64,000 nt of DNA from Leucoraja ocellata (Eukaryota). The notes below the pieces were generated by a model. The model searched no databases. It saw nothing but the letters and a program-made list of their open reading frames with translations, and was not told the DNA's origin. Positions 593-62,189 of this stretch are shown piece after piece. A program made the position numbers and the translations under genes. Where the stretch lies: assembly GCA_036785375.1 (NCBI GenBank), contig JAWMAR010000153.1:3844001-3908000 (forward strand), in the 5' to 3' direction. The first letter of the stretch is position 1. Each line of letters begins with the position of its first letter.

Positions 593-760
593 CGTAGAAA
601 CATAGAACTGCAGATGCTGCTTTATACCAAAGAAAGACACAAAGTGCTGGAGTAACTCAGCGGGCCAGGCAGCATCACTGGAGAAAAAGGATGGGTGGAG
701 TTTTTGGTTGGGACCCTTCGTCAGACTCTGAAGAAAAGTCCTGACCCGAAACGTCACCAA
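593..760. mobile_element. Penelope-end mini-element with two back-to-back degenerate hammerhead-like motifs
   Basis: GAACTGCAGATGCTG...GCTGGAGTAACTCAGCGGG...CCCTTCGTCAGACT followed by CTGAAGAAAAGTCCTGACCCGAAACGTC (728-755). Confidence 0.65.
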
Positions 761-13762: not shown

Positions 13763-15060
13763 TGTTCAAGAAGGAACTGCAGATGCTGGAAGATCGAAGG
13801 TACACAAAATTGCTGGAGAAACTCAGCGGGTGCAGCAGCATCTATGGAGCGAAGGAAATAGGCGACGTTTCGGGCCGAAACCCTTCTTCAGACTGATGGG
13901 GGGTGGGGGGGAGAAGGAAGGAAAAAGGGAGGAGGAGGAGCCCGAGGGCGGGGGGATGGGAGGAGACAGCTCGAGGGTTAAGGAAGGGGAGGAGACAGCA
14001 AGGGGTGGCAAAATTGGGAGAATTCAACGTTCATGCCATCAGGACGCAAGCTGCCCAGGCGGAATATGAGGTGCTGTTCCTCCAATTTCCGGTGTTGCTC
14101 ACTCTGGCAATGGAGGAGACCCAGGACAGAGAGGTCCGATTGAGAATGGGAGGGGGAGTTGAAGTGCTGAGCCACCGGGAGTTCAGGTAGGTTATTGCGG
14201 ACTGAGCGGAGGTGTTTGGCGAAACGATCACCCAACCTCCGCTTAGTCTCCCCGATGTAAATCAGTTGACATCTAGAGCAGCGGATGCAGTAGATGAGGT
14301 TGGAGGAGATACAGGTGAACCTTTGTCGCACCTGGAACGACTGCTTGGGACCTTGAATGGAGTCGAGGGGGGAGGTGAAGGGACAGGTGTTGCATTTCTT
14401 GCGGTTGCAATGGAAAGTGCTCGGGGAGGGGGTGGTACGGGAAGGAAGGGAAGAATTGACAAGGGAGTTGCGGAGGGAGCAGTCTTTGTGGAAGGTAGAC
14501 ATAGGGGGAGATGGGAAGATGTGGCGAGCGGTGGGGTCACGTTGGAGGTGGCGGAAATGGCGGAGGATTATGTGTTGTATTTGCCGGCTGGTGGGGTGAA
14601 AGGTGAGGACCAAGGGGACTCTGCCCTTGTTGCGAGTGTGGGGATGGGGAGAGAGAGCAGTGTTACGGGGTATGGATGAGACCCTGGTGCGAGCCTCAAC
14701 TATGGTGGCGGAGGGGAATCCCCGTTCCCTGAAGAACGAGGACATTTCCGATGCCCTGGTATGGAATGTCTCATCCTGGGAACAGATGCGGCGTAGGCGG
14801 AGGAATTGAGAGTAGGGGATGGAGTCTTTACAGGGGGCAGGGTGGGAAGACGCGTAATCCAGATAGCCATGTGAGTCAGTTGGTTTGTAGTGTATGTCGG
14901 TTAGAAGTTTGGCCCCTGCGATGGAGATGGTGAGGTAAAGGAATGGTAAGGAAGTGTCGGAAATGGTCCAGGTGTATTGGAGTGCCGGGTGGAAGTTGGT
15001 GGTGAAGTGGATGAAGTCAGTCAGTTGTGCAGGAGGTGGCCCCAAAGCAGTCGTCAATGT
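13763..15060 (-). mobile_element. Penelope-like element, 5'-truncated (RT C-terminus plus GIY-YIG endonuclease)
   Basis: ORF 13978-15132 has YKPTDSHGYLDYASSHP, IPYSQFLRLRRICS, C..KKC.TC, NLIYCIRCSRCQLIYIGETKRRL.DRF.KH and GMNVEF; terminus carries a hammerhead-like motif; inserted in a V-SINE. Confidence 0.92.
13864..13891 (-). ncRNA. Minimal type I hammerhead ribozyme motif at Penelope terminus
   Basis: Reverse complement CTGAAGA-A-GGG(TTTCGG)CCC-GAA-ACGT-C: CUGANGA box, stem II, GAAA box, palindromic ACGU stem III and UH site. Confidence 0.75.
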
Positions 15061-16755
15061 TGGTTTGGTATAAATGCAATGGTGTGTGTTGGATAGTGTT
15101 AGTGCGTGGTCAGTGCAGCCTCGGTGGGACAAAGGGCCTCGTCCGATCTCTAAACTAAACTAAATTCACAATCCACGAACTTGAACACTCTATTGAAATT
15201 TAACTACTAGGTAAAAAGGTCTCATGAGAAAGAGGTACAAAGTGCTGGAGTAACTCAGCAGGTCAGGCGTTATCTCTTGTAAACATGGAGAGGCACCGAT
15301 TTGCATTGGGACCCTTCTTCGGACTGATTGTGGTGAGAGGTAGGGGAGAAAGCTTGAAGAGAGGAATTGAAGGACAAATGTAATATATGAAATTATTAGA
15401 GGCACTGATAGAATAAACCTTTTGGGATGGAAAAATCGGACACTAGAGGGCCTAGCTTTAAGGTGAAAGCAAAACTTTAAAGGAGATATGCGGGTCAGGT
15501 TTTTTTACACAGATTGTGGAACGTGCTGCCAGGGTTGGTAGTTGAGTCTGATACACTAGTAGCATTGAAGAGACTTGGATAGATTTATGGATATCAGCAA
15601 CTGGAGGGATATGAATTATGTGCAGGTGGATAAGGAACCTGGCACCATGTTCGGCACAGATATTGTGGGCCGATGGGGCTGATCCTGTGCTGTACTGTTC
15701 GATGTAAGTGCAGCTCGATTGCAGACATTACTTTTTGATGAGACATTCAAGTAAGGCACAATTTGCTTCCTCAACTAGATGTGAAATATAACCATAGATA
15801 CAGCTTGAACAAGAACTGTGGAGTTTATCCCTGTGCGTCAGTCAATATTAACCTTCAATAAACAACTAAAAAGAACAAATTATGTAGTCACTATCACATT
15901 GGAAACTTGCTGTGACCAAATTAGCTTCCAGGTGTCCCACAACAGCCATCGAAAAACATTTAATTGGCCACAGGCATTTTGGAATGCGCTGTGGCCATGT
16001 CGAGTATTATGTGCTTACAAATCCTTATTTCAATTTCCCCCCAGGATCAGAAAACAAAAAGAAGTAGGCTTGGGAATATCTTGTCTACAAATAATAAATA
16101 ATAGGTTGTGCAGTCATTTAGAAAGAATGATAGACACAAAATGCTGGAATAACTCAAAAGGTCAAGCAGTATCTCTGGAGAAAAGATAATAGGTGACGTT
16201 TCGGTTTTGCAATGAACCAGAGACTTATTTTTTGTCTATCTTCAGTATAAATCAGCATCTGCAGTTCCTTCCTACACCTTGAAATGATGGTTTATTTTAG
16301 GTATTGTCACCTGTACCAAGGTACAGTTCAAAGCTTTATTTTGCCTGCTGTAAAATCAAATCAGATAATACCTGTACATGAATATAATCAAACCAAACTC
16401 AACTATAGTAGGTAGAGCAACAACAAAGATATAATATGTAGAATATAGTTCTCAGCATTGTAACATAATAGTCCAAAAGAAAAAGTCCAATGTCCGCAAG
16501 GAGGTATAGAAACATGGAACTGCAGATGCTGGTTTAAAAAAAAAAAAGACACAAAGTGCTGGAGTAACTGACCTGCTGAGTTACTCCAGCACGTTGTGTC
16601 TGTAATGAGGTATAATGGAGAATTGGAACTGCGTCCTAACTTATGGAGGGACCATTCAGAAGCCTGATAAGAACTGATAACATGTAGCTACCAAGGGGAT
16701 AGTAATGAAGTTAAAATGGAGTCATTATCCTTGTACCCATTACGTTCCAATTTAT

Positions 16756-16966
16756 AGGAAGGAACTGCAGATGCTGGTTTAAACTGAAGATAGACGCAAA
16801 AAGCTGGTGTAACTCAGCGGGCCAGGCAGCATCTCTGGAGAGAAGGAAATTGTGATGTTTTGGGTCAAGACCCTTCTTCAGACGTCACCTGAAATGTCAC
16901 CCATTCCTTCTCTCCAGAGATGCTGCCTGATCCGCTGAGTTACTCCAGCTTTTTGTATCTATCTTA
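16756..16966. mobile_element. Palindromic Penelope-end mini-element
   Basis: AAGATAGACGCAAAAAGCTGG...CTCTGGAGAGAAGGAA followed by its reverse complement TTCCTTCTCTCCAGAG...CCAGCTTTTTGTATCTATCTT. Confidence 0.75.
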
Positions 16967-17698
16967 TGTTCAAATTGACACCACACTTACAGTATGGAAC
17001 ACATCTGACGCAAGAAGCTGGCAATCTGGTAGCATTGTATTAATGCTGCAAATGTCATTAAAACCCAGAAAAATACATAAGCAAGAAAGCACTTGTCCCT
17101 AATTACTGAAAATACGTGCTCTTACAAATTAACCAGGAGCGACAGATGTACACGTTTGCAACTTGGCCTGATTCCACAGCAATGTTATGTGCAACATTTC
17201 ACCAAGACGAAGAATGTGGTGTGGTATTCCCTAGATACCTCATACTTCTACATTGCACAGTTCGAGTGGGTCCTGACAATCCAATTATACCATTACTCCA
17301 GCAATTCAGCCTCATACCATTGACAGCAAAGTGTACACAGAAGTTGTAATCTAGTTAAGAAACCAATGCCAATGTTCAACTTTTATTTACTAAACCTATT
17401 TTAATGGCATCCTTTCATGTTCTGTTGATAATTCGTCAGTTTCACACACAACCAGATATAGTTCATTCTAGTTACTCCTTAAATGTTGGCTGCGTTATGA
17501 TAGACGCTGATGTAAGAAAAGAACAGAAAGGAGTTTGCAATTGTATTGGGAGTATTATTCTTTATTTTGCATGAACCTCTCTTACGCCTATCTCTTCCTT
17601 TCAATCAAGCAGACAGACACACACACACACACACACATTGTCACCTATCTATATTTACTCCCAGTGGTAGAGCTGACCAAGTAAGGAAGGAAAGAAGG

Positions 17699-18811: not shown

Positions 18812-20539
18812 GTAAGCAAAAGATTTATTGTTTTTGTTATGTCAACTTGATTATTTAAGGTTGTAAAGCTGCTGTCTCACAGCACCAGAGACACAGGTTC
18901 GATCCTGACCACCGATGCTGTCTGTATGCAGATTGTACATTCTCGCTGTGACCGCGTGGGTTTCCTCCGGGTGCTCCGGTTTCCATCCATATCCCACGTG
19001 TAGGTTTGTAGGTTAATTGGTCTCTGCAAAAAAGTGCCTTAAATTGCAGGGTGTGGAATCGGTGGGTCGATGGACCTGTTTCCATGCCGAATCTCTAAAC
19101 TAAATTAAACTCAACCAAAAGCAAAAATAGTCCTTTAAACTAAGTATATTGTTTCATTCAAGGAAGGGAGCACTATCCAGAGTTGCTGCCTGAGCCGCTG
19201 AGTTATTCCAGCAATTTGTGTCAGTCTGTAGATTAAGTGTGTGAGGGCAAAATTGTTGCAGCTGTAAGTTAAAGTGAAGAAATGTGAGGGTGTGCTCAGA
19301 AATGAAACATAAAAGCATCTTTCTAAAAATGTAAAAACTAGGAACTAAAGGAAGATTTATGTATTATCCTCTAGAAATTACTAAGAGCTAGTGTACAGAT
19401 ACTCAAAAATAAATTGAAAGGCTAATGCTTCATTGAATTGTACCTCAAGAGACCGGAATACCATGTGTGTGAATTAAGATTTAGCTGCTTAAAGCTTTCG
19501 TTAATCATATTAATTTCTGCAACCAAACCTCAGGATCTGTTAAAAAAAAAAGGCTCAAAGTCTTCTCATCGAGCCCACACACAAGAATAAAAGTTGTTCA
19601 GCCAGAGCTGAACACATTTCTCGGCATCTGCACACAACGGTGTCTGTCTTGTCGTTTCTTGTGCTTCTTGTGCGTGGTGGTGGAAAGATTGGTGGAAACA
19701 GGGGCCGCGACGTGAACGCTCTTTCCTTGACCCCAGGCTCAAATGCTGGAGTAACTCAGCGTGTCAGGAAGCATTTCTGGAGAGCATGGACTGTACCTAC
19801 AGTATGTTCTCCACTGATGCTGCCTGACTTGCTGAGTTACTCCAGCACTTTGTGCCTATTTGGTAAACCAGTATCTGCAGTTCCTTGTGTCTCAGGAGAT
19901 GTAACTGCTTTAGAAAGGGCGTGGTACAGATTTACAGAAAAGACTAAAAAGGGTTAGATTATGGGGTAATGCAATCACAGTGTTAAGTATACTAAAGGGA
20001 TATGAAAGGGCAGATTGAAATAAATTGTTTCCGCAAAAAAGTGGGGAAGTTCAGAATAAGGCGACATAAAATGAGAACTAGTCTGTTCAGAGATGGTATC
20101 AGGGATGGTATCACTTTACGATTAAGAACGTTTGCTTTCTGGAATGTTGGCCTTAGATTAATCAAAATTTCAAAACTGAAATTTATAACATTTCTTTATA
20201 AAGACGTACAGGTGTGTAGGTTAATTGGCCTCTGTAAATTGCGCCTAGTGTGTAGGAAGTGGATGTGAATGTAAGATAACATAGAACTGATGTGCGCTGG
20301 TGGTAGATGGTCACTGGGTACTCAGTGGGCTATAGGTCCTGTTTCCATGCTGTATCTATCAATCGATCAGCCAATCAATTGCTATTGACCCTCATCTCAA
20401 CTTCAGGCCAAGATGAAACACCAATAACCTAAAACTCTCATTATTAAACCTGTGTCCAGTATAGAAGAGAGAAAACGGAGAACTTTATGTTGAACAAATG
20501 TGGTTTTTACTGTCAAAATAATTTCATTTAGTTTGGTTT

Positions 20540-21298: not shown

Positions 21299-23119
21299 GC
21301 TGGCACTCCAGCATTACTGAGTTATGTAACATCCCTTCTGTAGTGATGAGATACATTGGGCCAAATCCCATCTTAGTCATGCCCACTCTTGCAACAATAA
21401 TGTGGTCAGATCTCATTTGCAAGGAAGTGAGACACAGTTAAAGCATTTCGCTTAGAATGGTTTTGCAATCAGCTGGATTATTATAGATAATGATGGTTTG
21501 TGTGTTATATTGCAAGGTTAATTTTCTGCCTATGTGCTCTCCGCACAGGGACCTATGGGCATATTAGATGTTTTTCATCCTTTCCCACCAAAATATTTTT
21601 AATTATCTTGAATGCAAATTATTAAATTATTGTATATCATTAATTCTCCAATTATTTAAAATTAAGTCTTTGCACACTTCAACCATCGGTGCGTTTAAAT
21701 CCCAAAACAATTTATTATACAAGAAACAGCTCGTGCATGAATCATCACTTAGTTTATGTCGTCTCAAAGCATCACAGATCTACAACAGCCACTCACGCAC
21801 CACTGATAGACACAAAATGCTGGAATAACCTAGCGTGTTGGGCAGCATCTCTACAGAAAAGAATTATGATGAAGGGTCTTGACGACGAAACGTCACCTAT
21901 TCCTTTTCTCCAGAGATGCTGCCTGATCCGCTGAGTTTTTCGAGCATCTTGTGTCTCTAGCACCTGCCACCAAGGTAACTCTCACACCAACCTTCAATCA
22001 TTTGGACACCACCCCACCCACTCCACCCCATCCCCTCTCCCCAAACGCTGCTAATCACGTCCCATAAACACAAGAACACTGGAGCACGACCAGGCCCATC
22101 AAGCCTGTCCACCATTCAATACAAACGATCGTGGCTGATCTATGGTGGCTTCAAATCCATTTTGATCTGTCAAATATTTATCTATCCCCACCTTAAATAT
22201 ACCTAATGATCTGGTTGTCATCACCCTTGTGTATGTGTGGGGAGACGCGGAGCAGAACAAATCAGCTCCACTTCCATCCTGTCAATTCCCCTCAGGGTCT
22301 TATTAGCTTGAGTACTGTTACCCTTCATTCTTCCAAACTTCAAGAAATATGGACAAAATCGTACACCCTTCCTCTTGAATGGACAACCCTCTCTTCTCAC
22401 AAAATAGCCCGGTGAGTCTTCTCTAGTCCAACAGTTGAAAGGTTCAATGGAACAACGTTACTTTACTGTCACCCAATACAGTGAAATTATTTTCTTGCAT
22501 GAAGTTCAGTGACAATCCTATTGTATATTAGGCACAATCATACTAATTAGAGTGTAAGATAGTAGACCACACAAGAGTTGACTTCTAAGTTTGTTTCCAA
22601 TCCTTTTCTATATCCTTTTTTTGGTAAGGAGACCAAAACTGCACTCAGTATTCCAGGTGTGGTCTCACCCTGTATGACGTTAACAAAGCCTGTCTATTCT
22701 TAAACTCGAATTCCTCTGCAATAAATGATGTTGGCCTTTTTAACTTTGTTGGACCCGCTGAATACCAATTTGTGAACTATCCATAAGAGCATCTACTTCA
22801 CTTCTTTGCGGGTTTCGCCATTTACATAATAATCTGTCCCTTCATGGGATTGCATGAACTTGCACTTCCATCTCCCAATCTGATCCTGAATCCTCGCCCC
22901 TTCCCACAAGACGTCCAAGGTTCCAATTCTCTCAATGCCCCCGGTCGGCAACACACCTAGATTCCTGAACCTTACTGCACCAAATCACCCAATACTTCGA
23001 AACCCTGATTTCTAAACTCCCTGAGCAAAGTTCCCTGAATGGTGATTTCCCAAAACCGAAATCCACTGTTGGCTGAGATAACTTGACCCAGCTACACCAG
23101 GCCCCAACTACCCCAGCCT

Positions 23120-31335: not shown

Positions 31336-31858
31336 TTGTAAAAATGTAATTCTGCAAAGCTACCTGTCTACACTCAAAATGTTAAAGCTAAGCATGAAAT
31401 TATAGGCATTGGAATAGTAGTTAATCAAAGTTAGGTAGGTAATTCTAACCATTGAATACTGAGGTTAATCAGTATCTGAAGTTCTTTGTTTCTATGTTAA
31501 TCATTTATTGTTGGCTCTATAGAGGTGGATAAAATCATGAGAGGAATAAATCGGGTGGATGCACAGAGTCTCTTGGCCAGAGTAGGCGAATCGAGGAACA
31601 AAGGAGGTAGGTAGGTTTAAGATGTAGGTTAGGGGAAAAGATGTATTATGAATCTGAGGGGTAACTTTTTCACACACAAAGGGTGGTGGGTGTATGGAAC
31701 AAGTTGCCAGAGGCAGTGGTGGACTGGCCAGGGTGTCAGCTTGAAGGGTGTCATGATGAAGTGGGCCCCCTTTGTCTCCTGGCAACCAATATTTTTAGAC
31801 AAAAATGCTGGAGAAACTCAGCGGGTGCAGCAGCATCTATGGAGCGAAGGAAATAGGT

Positions 31859-31886
31859 AACGTTTCGGGCCGAAACCCTTCTTCAG
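31859..31886 (-). ncRNA. Minimal hammerhead ribozyme motif in a 90-bp TSD-flanked mini-element
   Basis: Reverse complement CTGAAGAAGGGTTTCGGCCCGAAACGTT; element flanked by AATATTTTTAGAC at 31788-31800 and 31891-31903. Confidence 0.7.
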
Positions 31887-32189
31887 ACTAAATATTTTTA
31901 GACCCAGTCCGCCACTGGCCAGAGGAGATAGTTGAGGCTGGGACTATCCCAAGCTCTAAGATCTTTGATCCCAACATTTAAGAAAGAGTTGGACAGGTAC
32001 ATGGATAGGACAGGTTTGGGGGGATATGGACCAAATGTTGGCAGGTGGGACTAGTGTAGCTGGGACGTTACGTTGTTGGGTGGGAGGGCCAGGCTCCACA
32101 CTGGGTGACTCTCTAAGTTGCTGCTCCCCAAAGATACTAGAGGAGTATCCTCTAAAGATACAAAGATACTCTGCTCTATAAATCTCTGC

Positions 32190-36528: not shown

Positions 36529-39104
36529 TACAAATTGAATTGAATTGAATTGAATTCTTTTATTGTCATTCAGACCTTATGGTCTGAACGAAATTTCGTG
36601 CCTGCAGTCATACATAAAATAATACAATAATAAACAACACTAAACACAAATTAACATCCACCACAGTGTATCCTCCAAGCACCTCCTCACTGTGGTGGAG
36701 GCAAAAATCTTAGGGCTGCAGTCTCTTCCCTCCTCTTCTCCCTCTGCGCTGAGGCGATTCCCCACCGGACGATGGTACAAACAGTCCCGCGACACACCGA
36801 ACCCCGCAAACTGGCCGGCTCAAACACTGCGGTGGTGAGTGTATGGAATGAACTGCCGGAGGAGGTAGTCGAGGCAAGTCGTATCGCAACGTTTAAGAAA
36901 CAGACAGGTGCATGGATAGGACAGGTTTGGAGGGATATGGGCCAAACGCAGGCAGGTGGGACTAGTGCAGATGGGACATGTTGGTCGGTGTGGGCTAGTT
37001 GGGCCGAAGGGCCTGTTTCCATGCTGCATGACTCTGAGGTAAAAGACATTAAGATCCTTTCCATAACCTTCCTGTATTTTAAAATAAATGGATTTGTCAT
37101 TATACATCCAGCCCCTGTCTACCTGCTTCTGGAGATATTGATTTAGTTCAAATGTATTAATTGATCTCTTGGTCTAGACAAGTTTGTCGGGTTCATGTGT
37201 TAAATGGTCATCCATTTGCTTATTTTGTTTGATACATCTACATGAGTATGGCTGGCAAAGAGGGCACAAAGACTACATGGTTTTGATTGATGTAGATGTG
37301 ACCGTGACGGTATTGCTGGCATTACAATTCTGCCAATGTTGCAAATTCTAATGTATTAACCGGTGTGCTAGATTGGTATGCAGCATTTGGCCAATGATTC
37401 AAGGTACTTTGAGAAACTTTTTAAGATTACGGTGGCAAATGCAAACTTCTGCATTGAAATGATCAATTTTGGTGAAGCAATCGAATACCTGGAAATAGGG
37501 AAAATGTGACAGATCTTGAGTGATGTGGTGTGGGAATGAAAATGTTGCTTTTAGTTTAGTTTAGAGATATAGCGTGGAAAGGTGTGGAAACAGGCCCTTC
37601 GGCCCACTAAGTCCATGCTGACCAGTGATTGCCAGTACACTAGTTCCATGTTATTCCAGTTTTGCATCCTATACATTGAAGGCAATTTAACAAAGCCAGT
37701 TAGCCCATGTTAAAGTAATGGTGGAAGAGCGTAGGAAGGAACAGCAGATGCTGATTTACACTGAAGATAGACACAAAATGCTGGAATAACTCAGTAGGAT
37801 AGGCAGCATCTCTGGGGAGAAGAAATGGGTTGTCTTGCCCTGAAATGTCACCCATTCCTTCTCTCCATAGATGCTGCCAGTCTCACTGAGTTACTCCAGC
37901 ATTCAATGTTGGAAAAAGTTTGGGGAGATGGTGATTGCTGTGGTAGACAGAGCACATTTTCTTTACGGTGCTGCATGCCTTTATTGTTAGTAATGCAGTG
38001 TGAGCTTAATTTGCAAGGTTTAACAAAATTCTCAAATCAATCAAAGAAATCTCTGAACATATGAACAAGATTTCTTTAGGCCTTGTGTTGCAAGATTGAT
38101 TGAATGATGTAGCATGGACATGGGCTCCTTGGCCCAAGGAACATCGATTACCCATTCACACTGGTCCTAAATTATCCCACTTTTGCATCCACTCCCATGT
38201 TCATGTCATAGTCCCGGAATTGGGCTGTTCGGCCCATTAAGTCTACTTCGCCATTCAATCATGGCTGATCTATCTTTCCCTCTCAATTCCATTCTTCTGC
38301 CTTCTCTGCATTCCCTTTGACGCCCTTGCTAATCACCAAGCAGTCAATTTCTGTTTTAAAAATAGCCAATGACGTCCTCACGACTCTCTGTGGCAATGAA
38401 TTCCACAGATTAACCACCGTCTGACTATAGAAATTCTTCCTCATCTCCTTACTGAAGGTATGTTCTTTTATTTTGCCCCCTGGTCCAAGACACAATATGG
38501 ACACACTTATCTGTTTTGTAGTAAATGCCTACTATGTTCTGTGTGCTTAAGCAAAGCAAGAATTTCATTGTCCTATACAGGGACACATGACAATAAACTT
38601 ACTTGAACATTTGAACTTGACTCTCCACATCCATTCTATCCAGGCCTTTCTCTATTTGGTAAGTTTCAATGAGTTTCACTATGCACTTGGGACAATTTAC
38701 AGAGGCCAATTATCCTACAAACCCACACATCTTTCGGATGTGGAGGAAGCCAGAAGAAACTAATGCAGTCACAGAGAGAATGTGCAATCTCCACTCAGAG
38801 CACCATCAGTCTGGATCGAACCTGGGTCTCTGCCCTGTGAGGCAGCAGCTCTACCAGCTGCACCACTCTGCTGCCCTTTATACACTCTAAAGAAATGTTG
38901 CTTGACCCACTCAGTTCCTCCAGCACGTTATGTTTGCTCACTATGTATCTGGTGACCATTGGAAATAAAGTATCTTGTTCTGCATCTGTTGGCTGCCCTT
39001 TAAACAAAAACTGAAATGACTGGGGAAAGTGATGTTCAGCACTTTTATATGGGTTAGTGCTGTGTGTAGGAAATGAACCATCGTTCTGCCATTACTTGCA
39101 CTTT

Positions 39105-39284
39105 GCGGCGGCGCAGAACTGAGTTGCTGCCTTACAGCGCTTGCAGCACCGGAGACCCGGGTTTGATCCCGACTATGGTTGGTATCTGTACGGAGTTTGT
39201 ACCTTCTCCCCGTGACCTGCGTGGGTTTTCTCCGAGACCTTTGGTTTACTCCAAAGAGGTACAGGTATGTAGGTAAATTGGCTT
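39105..39284 (+). mobile_element. V-SINE 5' half split by a Penelope element (3' half at 41898-42020)
   Basis: Ends TGTAGGTAAATTGGCTT; resumes TGGCTTGGGAAATGTAAATTGTCCC...GGCCGAAGGGCCTGTTTC...CTAAAC. Confidence 0.8.
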
Positions 39285-41897
39285 AGACAAAAATGCTGGA
39301 GAAACTCAGCGGGTGAGGCAGCATCTGTGGAGCGCAGGAAATAGGCAACGTTTCGGGTTGAGACCCTTCTTCAGACTGTTGAGAGGGTGGGGAGGGGGGT
39401 AGAAGAAAGGAAGAAGCGGAGACAGTGGGCTGAGGGAGAGCTGAGAAGGGGAGGAGAAAGTAAGGACTACCTGAAATTGGAGAAGTCCATGATCATACTG
39501 CTGGGGTGTAAACTGCCCAAGGTGCTGCTTGAGGTGCTGCTCCTCCAATTTACGGTGGGCCTCACTCTGGCCATGGAGGAGGCCCAGGACAGAAAGGTCG
39601 GATTCAGAATGGGAGGGGGAGTTGAAGTTTTGAGCCACTGGGAGATCAGGTTGGTTAATGCGAACTGAGCGGAGGTGTTTGGCGAAGCGATCGGCAAGCC
39701 TACGCTGGGTCTCACCGATGTAGAGCAGTTGACACCTAGAGCAGCGGATGCAATAGATGAGGTTGGAGGAGGTGCAGGTGAACCTCTGCCGCACCTGGAA
39801 AGACTGCTTGGGTCCTTGAATGGAGTCAAAGGGGGAGGTAAAGCGACAAGTGTAGCATTTCCTGCGGTTGCAAGGGAAAGTGCCAGGAGAGGGGGTGTTT
39901 TGGGTGGTCTGGGACGAATTAACCAGGGAGTTATGGATGGAGCGGTCTCTGTGGAAAGCAGCAAGGGGAGGAGACGGGAAGATGTGGCCAGTGGTGGGAT
40001 CCCGTTGGAGGTGGCGTAAATGTCGGAGGATTATTTGTTGTATGTGACGGCTGGTAGGGTGGAAGGTGAGGACAAGGGGGAGTGAGAGCAGAGTTACGGG
40101 GTATAGAAGAGACCCTGGTGAGAGCCTTATCTATAGTAGAAGAGGGGAACCCCCGCTCCCTGAAAAATGAGGACATCTCCGATGCCCTGGTGTGGAACAC
40201 CTCATCCTGGGAGCAGATGCGAAGTAGACTGAGGAATTGGGAGTAGCGGATGGAGTCCTTACAGGAAGCAGGGTGGGAAGAAGTGTAGTGGGTTCATAGT
40301 GTCAAGTCAAGTTGTCACATTTATTTATATAGCACATTTAAAAAACAACTCTCGTTGGCCAAAGTGCTTTACATTTGTTATAAGAATAGCACAATAGTGG
40401 ATGTCGGTCAGGAGTCTATCACCTGCGATGGAGATAGTGAGGTCTGGAAATGGTAGGAAAATGTTGGAAATGGTCCAGGTGTATTTGAGTGCCAGATGGA
40501 AGTTAGTGGTGAAATGGATGAAGTCAGTGAGTTGTGTGTGGGTGCAGGAGGTAGCACCAGTGCAGTCGTCAATGTAGCAGAGGTTGGGGATGGGGCCCTG
40601 GTACGCCTCGAACAAGGATTGTTCGATGTACCCTACAAAGAGGCAGGCATAGCTAGGGTCCATAGCCACGCCTTGTATTTGGAGAAAATGGGAGGAGTCA
40701 AACGAAAAGTTATTGAGGGTAAGGACCAGCTCCGCTAGGCGGAGGAGGGTATCAGTAGATGGGGATTGGTTGGTTCTGCGGTCAAGGAAGAAATGGAGGG
40801 CTTTAAGACCCTCCTGGTGGGGGATGGAGGTGTAGAGTGACTGGACGTCCATGGTGAAGATGAGGGAATGGGGGCCTAGAAAACGGAAGTCCTGGAGAAG
40901 ACGAAGAGCGTGTGAGGTGTCTTGAACGTAGGGAGGGATTTGACCAGGGGAGGAAATAGGATGGTCGAGGTATGTGGAAATAGGTTCGGTGGGCCAAGAA
41001 CAAGCAGAAATAATGGGTCTGCCAGGACACTCAGGTTTGTGGATTTTGGGGATAAGGTAAAATCGGGTCGTGCGGGGCTGGGGAACGATGAGGTTGGAGG
41101 CTTGGGAGGGCAGGGAGCCGGAAGTGATGCAGTCAGTGATAGTGTTAGAGATCATGGCCTGGTGCTCGTCTGTGGGGTCATGGTCCAAGGATAAGTAGGA
41201 GGAGGTGTCTGAGAGTTGGCGCGTGGCCTCAGCCTTGTAGAGATCAGCGCGCCAGGGGGGGGGGCGAGGGCTCCTTCCCATGGACAAACGCTTTGATGCG
41301 GAGGCGACGGAAGAAGAGCTCCACATCGTGGTGGATGCAGAACTGATTGAGGTGAGGACGGAGGGGAACAAAGGTGAGGCCTCTGCTGAGGACAGACCAT
41401 TCAGTATGAGAGTGGGGAAGGTCATAGGAGATGGTGAACACACGGCAAGGATGGGGGTTGGAGCCGGAGGATGGGGGGGTGGTGGGTGGTCAGGGAGGAA
41501 GGTGGTATGAGGACCATAGTGTGGGTGAGGAGGACCTGGGGCCATATGGTTTGAGGGGGAAGGGGGAGTCCCAGTGGAACAACCACTGAGGTTTCCGGTG
41601 TTAGTTGGGACGAGCACTAGGACCCAGCACAGTCAGATCCCGTGAAGTCAGGGTCTGCAGCGTGAAGACTTCAGGCCCGGTGCTGAGCCTAGGACTCGGG
41701 TAAGGCGACGGCTGTGGCCTGCTGGAGAGCAGTGGAGCGGCGAGGATCAGGAGAGTTGATGGTGGAGGCCCGCGGGGAGTGGAGTCCGGGTCAGCGGGCA
41801 AAATGTAGGAGGTCCCGGATGGCCGGTGAGGCAGTGAGGTTTGACTGTCCTGGTGAGGCGTAGAGGTTCGACTGGCCCGTTGAGGCGGAGAGGTGAG
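39285..41897 (-). mobile_element. Penelope-like element, longer decayed copy (RT plus GIY-YIG, frameshifted)
   Basis: Fragments LSRGLTFVP, FYLIPKIHKPECPGRPIIS, TMDVQSLYTSIPH, YIDD and NLIYCIRCSRCQLLYIGET; TGGCTT duplicated at 39279-39284 and 41898-41903; interrupted near 40295-40395 by a short unrelated LINE/SINE tail. Confidence 0.92.
39347..39374 (-). ncRNA. Minimal hammerhead ribozyme motif at Penelope terminus
   Basis: Reverse complement CTGAAGAAGGGTCTCAACCCGAAACGTT. Confidence 0.7.
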
Positions 41898-47741: not shown

Positions 47742-48453
47742 AATTGCATCCTTGGCCCACTATTCCGATTCTGAATGTGAACTTGCTGGTAAAGGATGTG
47801 GGTCTATAGAAATTCCTCGGGTGCTGTCTCCCTTTCACCTAAACAAGACAAATTCTGCGGCAGTCTGGATTCTACTGGGCACCATACAGCTGTCAATAAT
47901 ATCATGTTTAAAGGAAAAAAAGTGTCCTTGCTATTTAACTTCCTGGAATAAAAGCACTACACATGGATGTGTAATTTTTTTTAACCTATTGTGTGGCAGG
48001 GAGCATGACGAGAAAGAGTTATGCTGCCTGATTTTCTTTTTTTGTTATATTACCAATTTGTAAATTCAGCTATGTTTTGTATTCACCAAAGGCTTTGGAT
48101 ATTAACTTTTCGAAAAAAAATGTCTTAGTGAACCAGTAATTGTAGCATTTTGTTTAGAATGTGAATTGCATGATTTTTTTTTTTTTTTAATTCATGTGGT
48201 TTATGGTAAGTGCATTTCTGTTACTTAGGTGTAAAATGTTGCTGAAGTATGGCGTGGCTTTTATTGCTGAAAATTAACCAAACATCACTTGCAGATTTGA
48301 AATTTAAAAATGTACTACTCCCTTTAAATTAAAAAAAAATGTAACTGCGAAACTTATATGCATTTTTAGGCTGGTTCTGTATAAACAAGCTAAACTGAGC
48401 GTTTAATTTTTTTAGTACAGGTTGAATTCTCAATCCATCTGGGTAAAATATTA

Positions 48454-48641
48454 GATAGACACAAAAAGCTGGAGTAACCCAGCGGGACAGGCAGCATCTC
48501 TGGAGAGAAGGAATGGGTGGTGTTGTCTGACCCGAAACGTCACCCATTCCTTCTCGCCAGAGATGCTGCCTGTCCCGAGTTACTCCATCTTTTTATGTCT
48601 ATCTTTGGTTTAAACCAGTATCTGCAGTCCCTTCCTACACA
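48454..48641. mobile_element. Palindromic Penelope-end mini-element with a 15-bp TSD, downstream of the AMER1 stop
   Basis: Inverted arms of about 65 bp around CCCGAAACGTC; CTGGGTAAAATATTA at 48439-48453 and 48642-48656. Confidence 0.85.
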
Positions 48642-51600
48642 CTGGGTAAAATATTAATCTGGATTTCAGAACCCAATAGAATGGGATATGATAACACTAC
48701 TGTTTAACTTTGCATTTGAGAGTCAGAGCTTGCTTTCCTCATGATATTCTTTACATTGACTATCTAATTCAAATAGGAGAGTCAAATGATACATGAATCT
48801 GTTGGGTCTGTCTACCTTATCATAGTTAATTGTTTTTGACTGTAAAGATTTGTGTATGCTAAGAACCATAGGTTTATTTAACTGTTGCCGTTTGTGCAAA
48901 ACTATTGTGGAACCAGTGAGTTCCAGATACCCACATCACTTCTGGATGGATGCAAAATATTCTCAACTACACTTTTGGTATTTTTTAGTTACCCTAAATA
49001 TATCCCTATAAGATCTTCCTGTTGAGGGAATTGGAATCTTTCTATGTACCATTCGAGGGTAGTGATTTGCAAATTCTTTGTGTTGCATTTAGCTGTAAAT
49101 CTTTTACATGCATTACAAAAATCAAGGGATTTATTTGGCTCTGTTCTTTGTGGAATCCCAAGGCAAATGGCCTTCCCGTCAACAAAACATCTAATGAATA
49201 TCTTTTGCTTCTTCCCATGACCCAAGTTTGGACTAAACAAACCACATTCCCCTTGAATCCCATTAGTTTTTAAATCTGAAATATTTTAAACACTGATTTT
49301 AAAAACCCTAATTTGGTTTGTCTCATTAGCTAAATCAATGTACTGCCAAATGTACTGAATAATGCAGGCAAGCAATTCTCGGCTTGATCAACAAGTAAAC
49401 AGGCCTTGACAAGGTTCTGAATGGAAAGTTGAATGGACACTTAATGTTGCTGCTGTTTATTGTGTAGTAGTTTCTGCTGGGTAAGTGTTAATCCAGCTGT
49501 CTCATCCTGCCACTGCCTCAACGTGATCCATTACTTGGCCAAATATCAAGTCTGAGAAGGAAAGAAATGAATAGGTTTTGGTTTCTTATTGTTATGTAGT
49601 GAGGTACTCTGTAAAGCTTTGTTTTGCATGGTATCTAATCGGATCACATGATATTCTACATAAATACAATTAAGTCAAACAATTAAGTACAGGGAAAGAT
49701 CCAAAATGCAGAATATATTTCTTGCATTAGTTCCATAGACAAAGTCCACTGTTCAGTATATCCTAATTGGCAATTTTTCTTTAATGTAACCAATGTAAAA
49801 AAAACTCCAAATAATGTGATAAAACTAACATTTGTAGAATTGAGGTTTGTGTAATATAGTGTTGCTGTCTGTTGTTGAATATAGCTATGCCTATCTATGA
49901 TACTTGTTGATTATATGTTCCAAAATACATTTTTAAAATGTATTCCTAATTTGGAATATGATTTAATTTTTTTTTTTATCCCATGCAAGATTACAGTACT
50001 GGCTGTTTAACTTGTCTGCAACTTGAAACCTCACCTCCTTGTTCACGAATTTTACATCCAGACCAAAGTTCTAAAGTTGAGAGATGTATAAATGAGAAAT
50101 TTAAAATGAGTTTTCCATGTACCACCTAATAAAGCTGCTAAGTCATGTATTTTCCGTTAAGTAAAATAGACAAAGATGAGAAAAATTGGCTGAGATTCCT
50201 ACTCTGGACTGTTAACATGATGCTCCTGCTTGATCACCTGTGTATGTATGTGTGCCGATTAGTCGAAGACAAATTTCTTTTGCTATAATGTCATTTATCA
50301 CCTCAAGTTCATTTTGTGTGCATGAACACACAAGGTAATAATGTGCCTATGGAACTCAAGCTGATATTGTCATTCTTAAGAGAACAGCAACTACTGCATC
50401 TTCTCCTTGTATCCATCATTTTATTTATCTTTGCAACTCGACGAAGGCATTTGAGTGAAATGTCATGAGATTGGGATGCAAGTTGGACACATTTATTTGG
50501 CATGGTGCCACAAGCTGCTATCTCATTTTCTTCGCTTGCTGAAGTTGCATACCAAGATAAGGATGATGGTATTCTCCAATCAGTTATCCATGTGACCATT
50601 TAATCCATGGAGTGAATGTCGCCGGTTAATTTAGTCCTTACCTACCTGAAAAGGTGCACAGGGACCTCCAAAGACATTGAACACTGTCTGATTTCAGCTT
50701 TCTGAGATGGCACATCCTTGTATGTAAATGATTGAAGGATTGTGAACATCAGTGGACCAATGTTTCAAAATAGACCACTCAAAGAGTAGGGAAGACCAAG
50801 GGAAGTGTAAATAACCTTCACTTTATATATTAAAAAAAAAAATGTAGCTTGAATTCCAGTCAACATCAGGCATTTAATAAATAGCATACATTGGTAACTT
50901 GTTAAATCATCCACATTTAAGTAATCAATAACAGCATCTCCTTATAAAAGGATCTAAATTTTATTGGATATTAAGGATTTAATGTTGGCATCATGCACAA
51001 AATAGGGGTTCACCCAAAATTTGAAGCCCCAATACACTAACAAAGCCAGTAAAAAATCCTGGGAAACAAAAACAAATCTCTCCAGATGCTGAAAATCTAA
51101 ATGCTACCCAGCCAGTCAGTTAATATTTCAGATCAAAGACCATTGACAAAGCACAAAAAATATTAACTTTTTCTTTCCACAGATGCTGCCTAATTTGCTG
51201 AGTATTTCTAACACTTTATTTTTATTTCAGTAGCAGAATGTATCCTGCACCTGTTAACAATTGGTTGATATCACCTATCAATACTTTAATCAAGTATTGA
51301 TCATTGGATGGACATTGTGTAAAGTGCAGTGTTGATGTGGATCTTGTGGAGCAGATCTTCCAGTGCCATCATTTCTATTTATTGGGCCACCTCAAATACA
51401 AGAATACTTTCAACAAAATCATTTATTTGTGCTTGATTATAACTGCAAGTAGGGATCGGGGGCATATCACAAAGATCTGCCATTGTCATTTTCTTCACCC
51501 TCCCCTGGAGCTTTGCATTCACGATTATTGAATTCTGGTAGCAAGTCTTGTTACAAAGAAGCTACACCACTACATGCAAAAATTAAGATTAATAAGCTTT

Positions 51601-54757: not shown

Positions 54758-57436
54758 TATATTAAACTTTTGAGGATTGTTTAGGGTTGGCTGGGGTCTT
54801 TGTAAATATACACTGAAGTAAAATGCATGAAAAGGTGTTCCAAGCCTCTGGAAGGAATCTTTTTTTACACATTTAAATGTGGTAGTCATCAGATAATACT
54901 AGAAATGTATGATGGGTGTACTAACAACTGAAGACTTTTTCTACACCAGTTCTGACAAATTTATGCCCAAATGTTTAACCCGTTAGTTTTTAACAAATGC
55001 TGACTGATCTATGCATTTTCATGTTTACTGTGTTTCCTTGAAATTGTGGCATTTACAAACTTCATGTTGTTACTCGTCTTACTTGCACACTTGTATGTAA
55101 TAAACGCTGAAGCATGCTTCCTGTTGTGCGTGACATGTATGTGTCCCAACAACAAAAATCTTTGTGGTGTCTCTACTGTATATGTGATATATGTATGAGG
55201 TGCCTTAAAGATGTTTTGGGTTATTCACATCAATAAGACCATCACAGCTGCTGACATCCCAGCTAGCACTGAATAATGCTGGCAACTTAATAAGCTTATT
55301 ACATGTAAAAGATTTCTTCAACCCAAACATCAAGGTGTTCTTTGTAGCTGCATTTTTCAAATGGAGCAATGTGCTTGTTGCTGTGTTTGATCTCTTAAAT
55401 ATATGGTGCTGTACATAACTCTGGCCTCTGTAAAGTGTGGAAAATGCAGTTTTTTGTAAATTGTACTACAAAGTTTTGATATTCAGCTGTTGTACTCCAA
55501 ATATTTATGGCCAAGTTGCTTTCCATTATCATTGTCTCATGAATGATTCACACAGTTCTGTGTGCAGAGGAAATAATAAAATTCAACCATAGAACAAAGA
55601 AAACTGTCTCTGAGAATTTCTTCCTTGGTTTTTCCCGGGTCCTGATTTATAGGATTGGCAACTGGCCTAAATGGGTGCATTGAAGTGAGGGACATGAATA
55701 CTATAGAAATTGCAATTATGGTCTTTCCTACTGACATCAAATACCTTGAATTTGTGAGAAAAGTTGCCTGAAATGAAAGCAATGTTAGAAAGGCAATTTA
55801 ACTTTTTCAGTGGAAGTAGTTGATTTTTTCCCCCCCCTGCGAGACACATGGATTGTTTCCCTCCCCTCTAATATTCTACATCAATACAATTAAGTCAAAT
55901 TCGAGTACAATAGATAGAGCAATGGGGAAGATACAAAATACAAATAACGCTTGTAATGGACATGATGTTTCGTATAGCCTTTAGCATCTTTAACTTTTAA
56001 TAACAAAAAATAAACCTAATGCTACTGAAAATACGTTTTTACTTTTGAAAATCTTGTAAGAAAATAACTTTGTTAGTGTGAGCCAGAAACTAGCCCCATG
56101 ACACAATTGTCTTTATAACATGACTTTCTATGACATGGTTAAGGTCGCAAATATCACGTTATAGCTACTACCTGTACGAGTTTACTCTCGCCCTCAACCA
56201 GAAGTGCACCATGCCACTGCCAATCTTTAAGTGATAGGTTCATCCCTTTTTGACTTGAATTTAAAATATTGAATAAAATGGAACTGTTTTCCAAAGAGCA
56301 TAGCCTTAGCCTTTACTGTGATTTCACTCTGAGGCTGGTTCTCACTGGTTACCTCTAACAGCACACCTGCAGGTGGACCGACTATGAATCCGAGCAGAGG
56401 ACAATCCGAGCAGAGCACGCAGGGAGTCCTTGACCCAGGTGTCTTTGCTGCCTGGGATTGTCACTCCTTGGGAAATGACTCAAACCAGAAACAAGAGGCA
56501 GACTTGACCAACTCTAGATGAGCAGGACATTTTATGGAAGGATTCAAAGTTAAATTTGCAAAAGTGTTTACTTAATTAGTAAGGGTGTCGGGGGATATGG
56601 TTAAAGGCAGGAGAATGGAGTTGAGAAGGAAAGATAGCAGCCATGACAGGATGGGCCTAATGGCCCAATTCTGCTCCTAGAACTTATGAACTTATTGTCT
56701 GTTCTTGCTGATCGTTTGAAAAATCATTAAAATGTACCGTTAAATTGTAACATCACATATTTTAATGATTTAATTAAATGCAATTTATTCTGGAGCTTTA
56801 GTGCAAAGGGGGCTTCAATTGAACAGATTCCTCAGTTGATGGTCTAGATAAAGGGAATTCAAATCTTATAAACCTATAGGAGTAATGAAGCTATTGTGCG
56901 AAGGGTTAGGCTCCAGTGATAGTCACATCCAGGGACTTTGCTTTACACTTATAAGCAACATAAACTCATTTTTATGTGCGCACTTGTTTTGACTCTGGTT
57001 CATACCTCCCATCCCCCATTTCTCTAATGCATTGTTGTAAATACAAGTGCTTAGTTTGGAGAAGGCTCCTCCGCCTTCCGAGTCCGTGCCGACTAGCAAT
57101 CACCCGTTCACTAGTTCTATCCTACACACTAGGGACAATTTTACAGAAACCTACAACCTGCATGTCTGGAATGTGGGAGGAAACTGGAGCACCCGGAGGA
57201 AACCCACGCGGTCACAGGGGGAGTGTACAAACTCCGTACAGATGGCACCTGTGGTCAGGATGGAACACGGGCCTCTGGCGCTGTAAGGCAGCAACTCTAC
57301 TGCTGCAGAATTGTGCCCCCCGTATGATGTAGTTGTGTTTAAGAAGGAACTGCAGATGCTGGAAAATCGAAGGTACCCAAAAAAGCTGGAGAAGCTCAGC
57401 GGGTGCAGCAGCATCTATGGAGCGAAGGAAATAGGC

Positions 57437-57464
57437 AACGTTTCGGGCCGAAACCCTTCTTCAG
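57437..57464 (-). ncRNA. Minimal hammerhead ribozyme motif in a short Penelope-end copy (about 57335-57466)
   Basis: Reverse complement CTGAAGAAGGGTTTCGGCCCGAAACGTT. Confidence 0.7.
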
Positions 57465-60400
57465 ATTGTGTGTCTTATTGCTTTTTTTCTAGTATGGCTG
57501 TATGGTAAATTGAATTTCACTGTACCTTAATTGGGGCACGTGACAATAAACTGACCTTGAAACCTTGAAAAATATACACCCCTTCCAGTAAAAGTAATTG
57601 AAGATTAAATTGGAGTTAGAAATCCTGTGGTTATTTCTCCACGGATTTGTCAGGGGTTCTTGTATCACCGTGATGGAGATTGGATATTCATTAGTTTCAC
57701 ACCCCAAACTTTCTGGTGTGTTTATGCACAACTTTGGATCATGAGTAAAGGAAGGTCAGATGCCCAGTGGCAACTAGGATTTGTGATTATTGCTCTCAGG
57801 ATATGAGGGAAATTAGCCAAACTTATGTGCTGTATCCTGGTTTCATTGACAATAAGCGTGGTACTCTTCTGGTTGCCCCATATGACAAATGACAGATCAT
57901 TTATCATTTCTGGTTGCAGTGCCAAGCAATTAGGTATGACTGATACGTTTACTGGCATGAACTGTTTTGATTCAATTAAGGATGATATATACAGAGATTA
58001 ATTTGCAGCAATATAGACTGGAGCAGATGATGGATAAGTGTAGAAGATGGCTGGAGGGAAAGGGTTCAAATGGCAATTCTCATAACGATGTGTTTATCCT
58101 TTAAACTTTTACAAGTCGCACCAATCAGACATACCATTCAAAAACAATTACCCATATGTTTATTAACTGAAGATTTATGCAAATAGTGATGCTGTACTAA
58201 TCCATCAATGCCACAGAGCTGAGGGTGGGATAGTTTTGTTGCCTCATGATTTGTCAGCACATCACAGGGGTCCCACTGCCACTGAATAACAACAAGCAGT
58301 GCGAAGGTCTGTGACCCTATGTTTAAAGCCCATAACGCTGTGTTTAAAGCACATAGCACTACAACCAACAGCTCTTTGTGTAAATTCCCACGCGTTGCCC
58401 TGGACTGGCTCGGCCTGCCAACCTCGCCCGATTATCTTTGTGTCCCGGCGGTGCCTCCTGCAGCCGATCTTGAAGGCGCTGGAGGCATCACCCGGCCCCT
58501 TTCCCACCGGCTCACTCCTCACCTCCATCGTCGCCAGCAGCTCACTCCTCCTCGGCTCTCCAGTCTTCGGAGCCGAGCTCGGCGGCTTCTGATCTTCCCC
58601 CCTGCAGGTCACGGCCCACTGGGTCTTCCATGTTACTCCCATCACTTTGTGTCTTAAATCATTTACATAATTTCATCTAAGTACAAATTGCTGTTTTTAT
58701 AAAGAAGTGTAGAAACATCCAAGATAGACAAAAATGCTGGAGAAATTCAGCGGGTGAGGCAGCATCTATGGAGCGAAGGAAATAGGCAACGTTTCGGACA
58801 TTTTTGTCTACATTCGATTTTCCAGCATCTGCAGTTCCTTCTTAAACATGTAGAAAAGTCCAGCTAGGGAGGAGGCCATCCTTCTCCGACTAACTTTTCA
58901 AAGGAACGGGTTAAGTAGTCTCACTCTCCGCATTCCCCACAGGCTAAAAACCTTTAACTCCTCAGTTAACAGGACAAACCTACAATGTTATTCTGATTTT
59001 CAAGCTAGTACAGGGACCAGCTGGAAGAGACACAAACTCTTGAAGGTGACCTGATAGGTTGAGAAGTTATGAATACATTTGGGATTAGTTTAATTTAGTT
59101 TTGAGATACAGCGCGGAAACAGGCCCTTCGGTTCACCGAGTCCACACTGACCAGCGATCCCGCACACTAACACTATCCTACACACCCGAGGAACAATTTA
59201 AAATTTTACCAAGCCAATTAACCAACAAACCAGTCCGTCTTCGGAGTGTGGGAGGAGACCAGAGCACCCGGAGAAAATCCACGCGGGTCACAGGTAGAAT
59301 GTACAAAGTCTGTACAGACAAGCACCTGTTGTCAGCATCAAACTCGGGTGTCTGGCACTAAGGCAGCAACATTACCGCTACGTAGCAATGTTACAAAATT
59401 TTGAGATAAAAAAAACAAGTCCGCAATTTATCCTATCAGATAAAGCATAACAAGAAGTTTAATTTGACACCTAATTCACTGTCATATCTTCAGTATTAAA
59501 GAAATTATGGCCATTTTCATACTCGGAAATCTTGCATCTTGTTCCCTATTGCTTTTCCATTGACTTAACTCAAAAGCTGTGATCAAGGACAGTCAAAAGC
59601 CCATAACTTTCTTAAAAATAAAGAGAACTGAATGAAATTTTCAGTTATTATAGATTGAAGCATTCTGAAACAAATATGAAACATCTTACTTGGATGACCT
59701 GAAATTAAAGCACAATTTCATCAGCTCTACCTGGCACAGCTGGCCGAGCTGATGATTCACAATGCCAGAGACCCAGGTTCAATCCTGACCTCGGTATGTA
59801 GTTTTTATATTCTTCACTTTGACCACGCGGGTTTCTTCTGGGTGCTCCCGGGTTTGTAGGTCAATTGACCTCTGTAAATTATACCTTGTATTTCGGGAGT
59901 GGATGCGAAAGTGAGATAACATCGAACTAGCATGAACCAGTGATCGGCAGTCGACCTAGGGTTCAGTGGGCTGAAGGGCCTGTTACCATGCTGTATATTT
60001 CAATTCAATCAATAAGCAACAGCACAGGTTCGATAAGCAAGGGGATTTTGCCAAATCTTCATGAATCATTGCTTAGGCCCCAGCTTTGCTTTGTATCCTG
60101 TAAAACGAGAGTACATTTTGGAAATTGTATTGAGGATTTGAAGGAGGTTGAATAGAGCGTAATTGGAATAACACCAGGGATCTGGAGTTTCAGTCATAAA
60201 AAAACAGGGATTTGCAGAGCTCTGGGGAAAGGACTGAGACTTTCAAAGATCAGCTCAGCCTTAGGGAACAGTGGGCTGAATTGCCTTTTATGTGAAGAAC
60301 CAGTCGATGATTTTGATAATAAGACTCGATGGCTTTTTAATATAGAATATTTCAGGAACTCAGTGGAAAGAGAACAAACGTGAGAAGAAAAGGCAATTGA

Positions 60401-61625: not shown

Positions 61626-62058
61626 GTTACCCAATGGGCCTCCCAGAGTTTCCTGCTGGTTCAGTAAAACCCCAGGCCAGAAATTATGAACAACATAAAC
61701 CACAAATTACAGGAGGCCAAACCATGGTAATATTTTCTGTCTGCGGAAGAGGTAGGTGTGGTGTTATTATGATTTGCAGGGGAGGAACAGGGTTTTAAAT
61801 TGCCACTCTGCTTAATATAATTAGTCACAAAGCTATCAGTCATATTGATAAATAGTTCAGAGTGAAATTTTAATGGTAAAATATCCATATTGAGCAAATA
61901 CTACCATCCACTATATTGGCACATTACATTAATGCAAAGATAGATACAACAAGCTGGAGTAACTCAGCGGGTCAGGCAGCATCTCTGGAGAGAAGGAATG
62001 GGTGACGTATTGGGTCAAGACACATGAATGCAATCTCAGCAGAATACCTTCTGTGTTA

Positions 62059-62189
62059 GTGTAGAAAAAAGGAACTGCAGATGCTGGTTTACCAAGGAAA
62101 GACGCAAAATGCTGGAGTAACTCAGTGGGTCAGGCAGCATCCCTGGACAAAATGGACACTGATGCTTTGGGTCGGGACCCTTCTTCAGA
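62059..62189 (-). mobile_element. Penelope-end mini-element with an 11-bp TSD (degenerate hammerhead motif)
   Basis: CTTCTGTGTTA at 62048-62058 and 62190-62200 flanks GGAACTGCAGATGCTGG...CCCTTCTTCAGA. Confidence 0.75.

Follow-up and report, generated by a model that had tools for sequence, protein, structure and literature searches.

The window analysed here is a 64,000-nt stretch of genomic DNA (positions 3844001-3908000 of contig C153, in the 3.44-Gb genome on which all genome-wide counts were made), and the question it raises is the origin of the very short elements that recur along it. These elements repeat the ribozyme-bearing terminus of two longer Penelope-like elements (PLEs) in the same window, and a sequence-only reading of this DNA had explained them either as a high-copy non-autonomous family of 90-190 bp or as extreme 5′ truncations ending just past the ribozyme, mobilised by the local Penelope copies. 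The terminus does recur across the window, in 32 arms where about 20 had been noted, and the suggested density of about one insertion per 3 kb is borne out by a 1.4-Mb sample of other contigs after its 96 inverted pairs are merged. The local copies are not the mobilisers, because both are dead, 5′-truncated and decayed. Copy 1 (13763..15060, minus strand), putatively Neptune-type, matches an intact natural copy at 87% and retains the end of the RT thumb, the Zn-linker, the GIY-YIG domain (Pfam E 3e-4), the pyrimidine-rich 3′UTR, the hammerhead and the tail. Copy 2 (39283..41771, minus strand) is 68-83% similar to an intact genomic copy, its GIY-YIG match is above the cut-off, and it ends without a tail at the site we call E1.

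Positions are given relative to the site at which the hammerhead is predicted to cleave, placed by known hammerhead numbering; minus-strand base 13863 is +1 and C3 is -28. In copy 1 the minimal type I hammerhead core lies at 13864..13891 (minus), with cleavage predicted between 13864 and 13863. It is preceded by TCAGT (-33..-29; 13892..13896, minus), the 5′ edge at which most of the short elements, or stubs, end according to our end counts. The same five bases resemble the initiator consensus, contain a splice-acceptor-like CAG and provide the 5′ side of stem I, which is 2 bp long. Two peaks of 3′ ends, E1 (about +66) and E2 (about +102), delimit the tail (13763..13797, minus).

Cores of the form CTGAAGA-A-GGG..CCC-GAAACGT are present where they had been reported, with five matches in the window against 0.04 expected: four on the minus strand (13864-13891, 31859-31886, 39347-39374 and 57437-57464) and a fifth, weaker one on the plus strand (728-754). 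Of the two described as intact outside the long copies, the one at 31859 is so and the one at 57437 lacks the stem I G-C pair, while the seven proposed variants have core positions broken or absent, the one at 48530 being without any CUGANGA. The loop of stem II does vary with GGG/CCC kept, but the stem needs redrawing: it has 4 bp (GGGU/RCCC) closed by a tetraloop, UUCG in young copies and CUCG in older ones, and the TCTCAA loop is best read as CpG decay. A descriptor search for the minimal type I core (CUGANGA, GAAA and UH, with stem II and a palindromic stem III) recovered it in full in 4 of the 32 window arms and 51 times in 1.4 Mb of other contigs, against 0-1 in controls; the strict core occurs exactly 90,619 times genome-wide and never in the reversed control. 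The motif is the known minimal hammerhead of Penelope pseudo-LTRs (pLTRs).

Stem I has two contiguous pairs, an A-C mismatch, and then possible U-A and A-U pairs, where the class calls for 4-5 bp. The covariation in stem II that the earlier reading had set as a check did not appear among 268 core-spanning arms: GGG/CCC is constant save for decay, an invariance that is uninformative, the fourth pair is U-A or U-G, and apart from this one-sided change compensatory two-sided changes stay at noise level. An Rfam scan at E<=10 gave no match to any hammerhead family. In folding predictions, other structures are more stable than the hammerhead for both monomer and dimer (-13 against -18 to -27 kcal/mol), and z-scores are near 0; a predicted +20..+85 stem (AGAUGCUG/CAGCAUCU) appears in the folds, yet it never varies. 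The motif is probably a real but weak ribozyme, dimer- or protein-dependent, and left uncut in the templates of the stubs.

The parent of the terminus can be recognised elsewhere in the genome, where intact relatives carry an open 1221-aa RT/GIY-YIG ORF in tandem units of ~3.99 kb. Each unit runs from the ORF through a pyrimidine 3′UTR, TCAGT, hammerhead, E1, tail and E2 to the next ATG at +137, about 35 nt beyond E2. A first look gave 21,391 RT candidates genome-wide, 150 of which were scored. The 1221-aa ORF (P0001) matches RVT_1 at E 1.4e-6 and GIY-YIG at E 0.012, the latter below the cut-off, and the family has the features of endonuclease-bearing (EN+) PLEs: one ORF with RT and C-terminal GIY-YIG, pLTRs in partial tandem, an inverted 5′ copy and a tail at one end. 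It has 690 protein relatives at E<=1e-50, the best 120 of the 690 at 38-54%; no named Neptune or Nematis protein was among the matches. Between RT and EN it carries a CX4CX2C linker (CGRSRCNTC), and it has a DKG motif (ADKGG); a CX2-5CxxC linker and a DKG motif are named for the Neptune clade in PMC8557442. By motif the parent family would therefore be Neptune-type, with the reservation that the linker is also found in Nematis. P0001 also has a long Pro/Ala-rich N-terminal part (residues about 160-490), most relatives being 680-1000 aa long, and at L055:3917-4420 this part holds an expanded 36-bp tandem repeat. The terminus is also present in contigs of three other organisms, together with a shoulder at the ORF start, in data whose depth cannot rank the parts.

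The stubs were counted with a profile built from 35 natural termini, applied to fourteen 100-kb blocks from other contigs. It found 552 arms in these 1.4 Mb, about 3.7% of the sample, and none in the reversed sequence. Single arms end at E1 (163) or E2 (156) and elsewhere in 44 cases; target-site duplications (TSDs), 10-18 bp in the stubs, reach at least 10 bases in 58 of 330 singles tested, against 4-9 in swapped controls. The three TSDs given for the window earlier are exact. One, AATATTTTTAGAC (13 bp), flanks a single stub from -31 to E1 with the intact core (31788..31903, minus), and another, CTTCTGTGTTA (11 bp), a single stub from -31 to E2 with a decayed core (62048..62200, minus); a third single stub, from -32 to E2, contains the core with the broken stem I pair (57336..57468, minus), and an old terminus at 15234..15370 (minus) keeps part of its own pyrimidine 3′UTR. 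The remaining TSD, CTGGGTAAAATATTA (15 bp), surrounds a head-to-head inverted stub made of an E1 and an E2 arm without CUGANGA (48439..48656). Many of the mini-elements are such inverted pairs, a feature absent from the earlier account. In the window they also occur at 16753..16969 (E2 arm from -30, E1 arm from -12), 19736..19887 (without a core), 21803..21957, 37729..37903 (E2 and E1) and 58709..58848 (young subfamily), and at 602..760, where a minus arm from -31 to E2 faces a plus arm that is only the short core remnant at 728-754.

The 5′ ends of the stubs are strongly non-random. Alignments start at -34..-18 in 406 of 552 arms (a figure that includes the 73 of 512 arms running on into the UTR). 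Exact genome-wide counts of the young subfamily fall from 59,632 copies at -20 to 36,086 at -28, 30,473 at -30, 24,691 at -31 and 21,182 at -32, so that successive steps lose 6, 8, 19 and 14% per nt where substitution accounts for 1.4%, and 24 of the first 30 copies that reach -32 continue through the UTR. Ends therefore accumulate at the core's 5′ edge, beyond which the risk of ending drops. Length-limited reverse transcription was considered and rejected: E1 and E2 arms share their 5′ end positions (p 0.68 for singles, 0.14 for all), so position and not length decides where an arm ends. Cleaved RNA, as stub template or as acceptor for template jumps, was also rejected, since only 9 of 552 arms end within -2..+2 of the predicted cleavage site and acceptor ends spread over -5..+10. 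Self-cleavage has left no trace in these ends, and the predicted cleavage site does not define the ends of the mini-elements.

The stubs appear to have been made one by one. Long and short copies are present in all four subfamilies (14/52, 10/23, 11/86 and 15/95, with 169 unclassified), and in a comparison of 558 arms by eye, from which UTR-like and inverted-arm flanks had been filtered, no 5′ junction was shared across blocks, element-derived or common-repeat words aside. That they derive from the terminus of the PLE is almost certain, which bears out the earlier suggestion of truncations ending just past the ribozyme; the companion suggestion of a 90-190 bp family is unsupported for the bulk of copies, whose 5′ ends spread over about 15 nt and whose junctions are private. 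One small composite, locally repeated, is the exception to private junctions. This four-arm composite contains a private captured segment of 25 nt and occurs four times within 100 kb (G000:C170:1000001-1100000, block positions about 3975, 15504, 78279 and 83428) with different flanks and TSDs, so that it was either re-mobilised locally in one piece or spread by ectopic gene conversion.

The inverted pairs are informative about how the arms were primed. Among the 96 head-to-head pairs of the sample, 60 of the 71 resolved combine E1 with E2 (p 3e-9), and among 82 pairs tested for TSDs, the window included, all 27 that are flanked by one are E1+E2 (swapped controls 0-2). Both arms belong to the same subfamily in 20 of 23 classifiable pairs, where shuffling gives a mean of 6.9. 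A wider set, in part selected, contains 56 inverted units flanked by TSDs, with both arms short in 46, both long in 7 and one of each in 3; the partner of a long arm is thus also long in 7 of 10 units (4 of these 10 having been chosen for a long ORF) against a base rate of 73/512 (p 1e-4). Two priming events on one RNA are well supported by these pair data and match the in vitro behaviour of an anole element.

Our results suggest that each stub is a pLTR end newly produced by target-primed reverse transcription, with an uncut and probably short, capped RNA as the template, and we regard this as the probable explanation, held with some reserve. The RNA would begin about 31 nt upstream of the predicted cleavage site, at the initiator-like TCAGT. 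The endonuclease would make a staggered cut at the target, and both DNA ends would prime reverse transcription internally on the same RNA, one at E1 and one at E2. Where the pLTR junction lies next to the RNA 5′ end, synthesis would run off after 95-135 nt and leave single stubs; where both cDNAs are kept and joined, often through the self-complementary stretches of the ribozyme, head-to-head pairs would result. A template junction further downstream in a tandem transcript would give long copies, and a jump of the RT to the 3′ part of the RNA (+150..+250, the ORF start) would give permuted mini-tandems of 170-300 bp. A run-off model needs resection or annealing for the roughly 30% of young copies whose ends fall within -20..-28.

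A capped RNA start at -31 is likely, judging from the bases at the edge. Among non-reference bases genome-wide, G makes up 40% at -31 against 30% expected and 34% at -32 against 28%, a modest excess that comes without a genome-wide inner control. Of 571 tandem junctions the first 100 were read by eye, duplicates included, and the base before -31 is G in 22 of these and A or T in 14, where base composition predicts about 10 and 26; 3 of 30 loci with G read TSD, one G, then -31. These extra Gs suggest a cap; in L1 and SVA an untemplated G has been interpreted as the trace of one (PMC4859970). An underpowered random sample showed no significant excess of the extra G (7/18 against 5/20, p 0.49), and RNA reads of a related organism, swamped by stubs within host transcripts, showed no pile-up of starts or ends. 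Single-cell reads of a related organism at L043:2500-3400 are about 5-10-fold biased to one strand, from sense transcription or internal priming. In D. virilis the start site precedes the hammerhead by about 120 nt and an intron separates the two (PMC2377424, PMC4209133), which counts against a start at -31 here.

The same products could arise with a different cause for the -31 edge, either stalling of the RT at a folded or protein-bound hammerhead or 5′-3′ exonuclease trimming of the RNA to a protected particle. The spread of ends over about 15 nt, the modest G excess, the missing RNA start in the related-organism reads and the variable RNA 3′ ends inferred from jumps (+150..+250, as trimming would give) all favour this alternative. 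The extra Gs at tandem junctions count against it. If each cDNA stalled independently, most pairs should be long-short, yet only 3 in 10 are, which argues against stalling and not against trimming. On balance we consider it unlikely, though a serious competitor. A splice origin fares far worse. The pyrimidine tract ending in CAG that precedes the core in all subfamilies, as polypyrimidine tract and CAG|TCTGA, would make the edge a 3′ splice site and the stubs copies of spliced RNA, and in D. virilis an intron end is placed at helix I (PMC4209133); no splice joint at the core was among those listed for the related-organism RNA reads, which are stub-swamped. We give this reading the least credence of all, together with its companion, in which the stubs are remnants of long copies shortened by deletion at the DNA level.

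A non-autonomous ribozyme-bearing mini family, SINE- or retrozyme-like, with its own masters that are transcribed, self-cleaved or circularised and re-inserted, would account for the high copy number with TSDs, for the exact 257-299 bp tandem units (L267, L298, L299) that resemble non-LTR retrozymes, and for the composite whose four occurrences within a single 100-kb block differ in their flanks. It sits poorly with variable 5′ ends, private junctions and both length classes in all four subfamilies, with 51 intact descriptors for 552 arms, and with the lack of ends at the predicted cleavage site. Moreover, the stubs lack the ORF-start RNA that the anole PLE needs for priming (PMC11167929), and the bulk are single or inverted; tandem units each with an intact hammerhead are rare exceptions (L267, L298, L299), their junctions differ between loci, and no fixed boundaries shared from a master copy were found. 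We judge such a family quite improbable. Inverted stubs might instead reflect self-priming, by fold-back of one cDNA or, as proposed in PMC3846280, by priming on an antisense template, in line with pair junctions that are often on palindromes and arms that share a subfamily. Against this, the tail-less E1 arm is the longer in six long pairs (L051, L053, L057, L058, L059 and L243); there is therefore no single fold-back cDNA and neither arm copies the other, which largely refutes self-priming for long pairs. Single stubs end equally at E1 and E2, and both outer ends of a pair adjoin one TSD, so that we find self-priming highly improbable.

Target-primed synthesis on a short uncut RNA also has to account for copies that reach the ORF start, which is rare (only 1,405 occurrences). 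Forty such loci were inspected, 38 in genome order and 2 picked for tandem spacing, with two duplicated pairs included; 33 are permuted, the terminus recurring within 290 nt of the ATG and the ORF start being joined to UTR or core. At L269 the sequence runs from E1 to -28 and then from +199 to +17, +199 to +111 and +200 to +144, returning three times to +199/200 from different stop points. Of 7 independent loci with upstream passes beyond -20, 5 have these passes stopping at -26..-33. Many jump or first-pass ends nevertheless fall at -40..-135 in the UTR and not at -31, which speaks against a single RNA start; in nine loci picked for intact ORFs the upstream ends are at -79 to -2648 or the copies are full tandems, none ending at -31. 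The tandems at L298 (299 bp), L299 (257 bp) and L267 (292 bp) are exact and could stem from jumps, from circles or from duplication of the DNA. Together with L282 and L269 they provide tandem units of 167-299 bp made of pLTR and ORF start, which are candidate nascent retrozymes. More tentatively than the mechanism itself, we propose that the roughly one million stubs may be integrated "strong-stop" cDNAs from a dimeric RT that primes both cut strands at two fixed sites of one capped RNA, whose start is the edge of the hammerhead, and then runs off its 5′ end or jumps to its 3′ part. The jump would also regenerate pLTRs on full-length RNA and seed retrozyme-like units, with cleavage dispensable and palindromes serving to join the cDNAs.

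Much of this layout is familiar: the ribozyme and the inverted-plus-tail arrangement are already known, and the stubs belong to a known element class. Cervera and De la Pena (2014, PMC4209133) described minimal hammerheads in the pLTRs of metazoan PLEs, including fish Neptune, Poseidon and Xena, mostly as solo motifs from truncated copies. Ours share with theirs the pLTR location and solo occurrence, CUGANGA with one extra nucleotide, G10.1-C11.1, the palindromic 15.2-16.2 (CG), the absence of loop 3 and a short stem I. They differ in that stem II has only 4 bp and contiguous stem I only 2 bp, in number (about 90,000 exact cores against 4,000-9,000 for coelacanth and Xenopus), and in that the present work places the breakpoints at the core's 5′ edge. 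With the inverted pLTR and 30-40 bp tail of EN+ PLEs (PMC3846280, PMC8557442) our insertions share a head-to-head inverted 5′-truncated copy, a tail at one end only, TSDs (9-18 bp) and junction palindromes; unlike them, most consist of two arms only, and the arm lengths favour two sense-templated cDNAs over the antisense self-priming of PMC3846280.

The closest functional parallel is the anole Poseidon element PAc, for which Frangieh et al. (2024, PMC11167929) showed in vitro that both target strands are cut and extended, that reverse transcription starts at two internal sites spanning the tail, that uncleaved RNA is used and that priming needs RNA downstream of the start sites. PAc is of a different clade, and its start sites lie inside the ORF whereas ours precede the ATG; the available text of that paper holds no map of genomic 5′ ends, pair asymmetry or jumps. 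L1 twin priming (PMC4859970) likewise involves both target strands and an untemplated G that marks a capped 5′ end, but L1 arms are non-overlapping pieces of a 3′-primed RNA while the stub arms overlap and start internally. Non-LTR retrozymes, which are related to PLE pLTRs and present in a chondrichthyan (PMC7229834; bioRxiv 10.64898/2026.07.22.740005), resemble our elements in their type I hammerheads and 170-400 nt tandem units; here the bulk are monomeric or inverted, the hammerhead is minimal instead of canonical, and the few tandem units include the ORF start and have locus-private junctions. A literature search, thin on subscription journals, found no report of chondrichthyan PLE stubs or of the core-edge breakpoint pattern; the motif or similar coverage profiles may already appear in PMC4209133 (supplementary alignments) or PMC11167929 (Fig. 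S2).

Several other features were observed in passing. At 19682-19746 (minus) the window has an Rfam match to the CPEB3/HDV-like ribozyme (35.5 bits, gathering threshold 35) in which GGAAAG and CTTTCC are able to pair. The match lies at the start of a different repeat, at least 175 bp long, and in the sequences examined three further copies of this repeat (79-89%) all start at the same GGGGTC; relatives lie at L212:847-1018 and in the G000:C170 and G000:C10 blocks. The common start would fit a 5′ end defined by self-cleavage, and the repeat is possibly a better ribozyme lead than the hammerhead. Pieces of the hammerhead have formed minisatellites with a unit of 33-34 bp (-21..+13) or about 60 bp (-30..+29, four copies), at 928-1050 of the G000:C170 block and 78698-79030 of the G000:C130 block; the joint of the 33-34 bp unit is also common in sequencing runs of other organisms. 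The window further holds a host ankyrin-repeat ORF or exon (17929-18858, plus), presumably ASB-like, a host ORF of the AMER family (44349-47741, plus), a LINE RT ORF with an ALKBH8_N match (35011-36372, plus) and a remnant of a Tc1-type transposase (53482-54336, minus). The ankyrin-repeat and AMER ORFs mark the DNA as vertebrate, and the repeat itself suggests a cartilaginous fish.

The very large fossil record in this genome constrains how Penelope elements make their pLTRs, tails and inverted ends. PMC2377424 sees no obvious mechanism for these end structures, and the function of the hammerhead in PLEs is called unclear in PMC8557442. The stub data predict that the RNA starts with a cap at -31, that arms pair strictly as E1+E2, that jumps land at +150..+250 and that cleaved RNA is not used, and they suggest how PLE ends could give rise to retrozyme-like tandem repeats. 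If true, double priming on a short uncut RNA would help to explain how Penelope elements insert.
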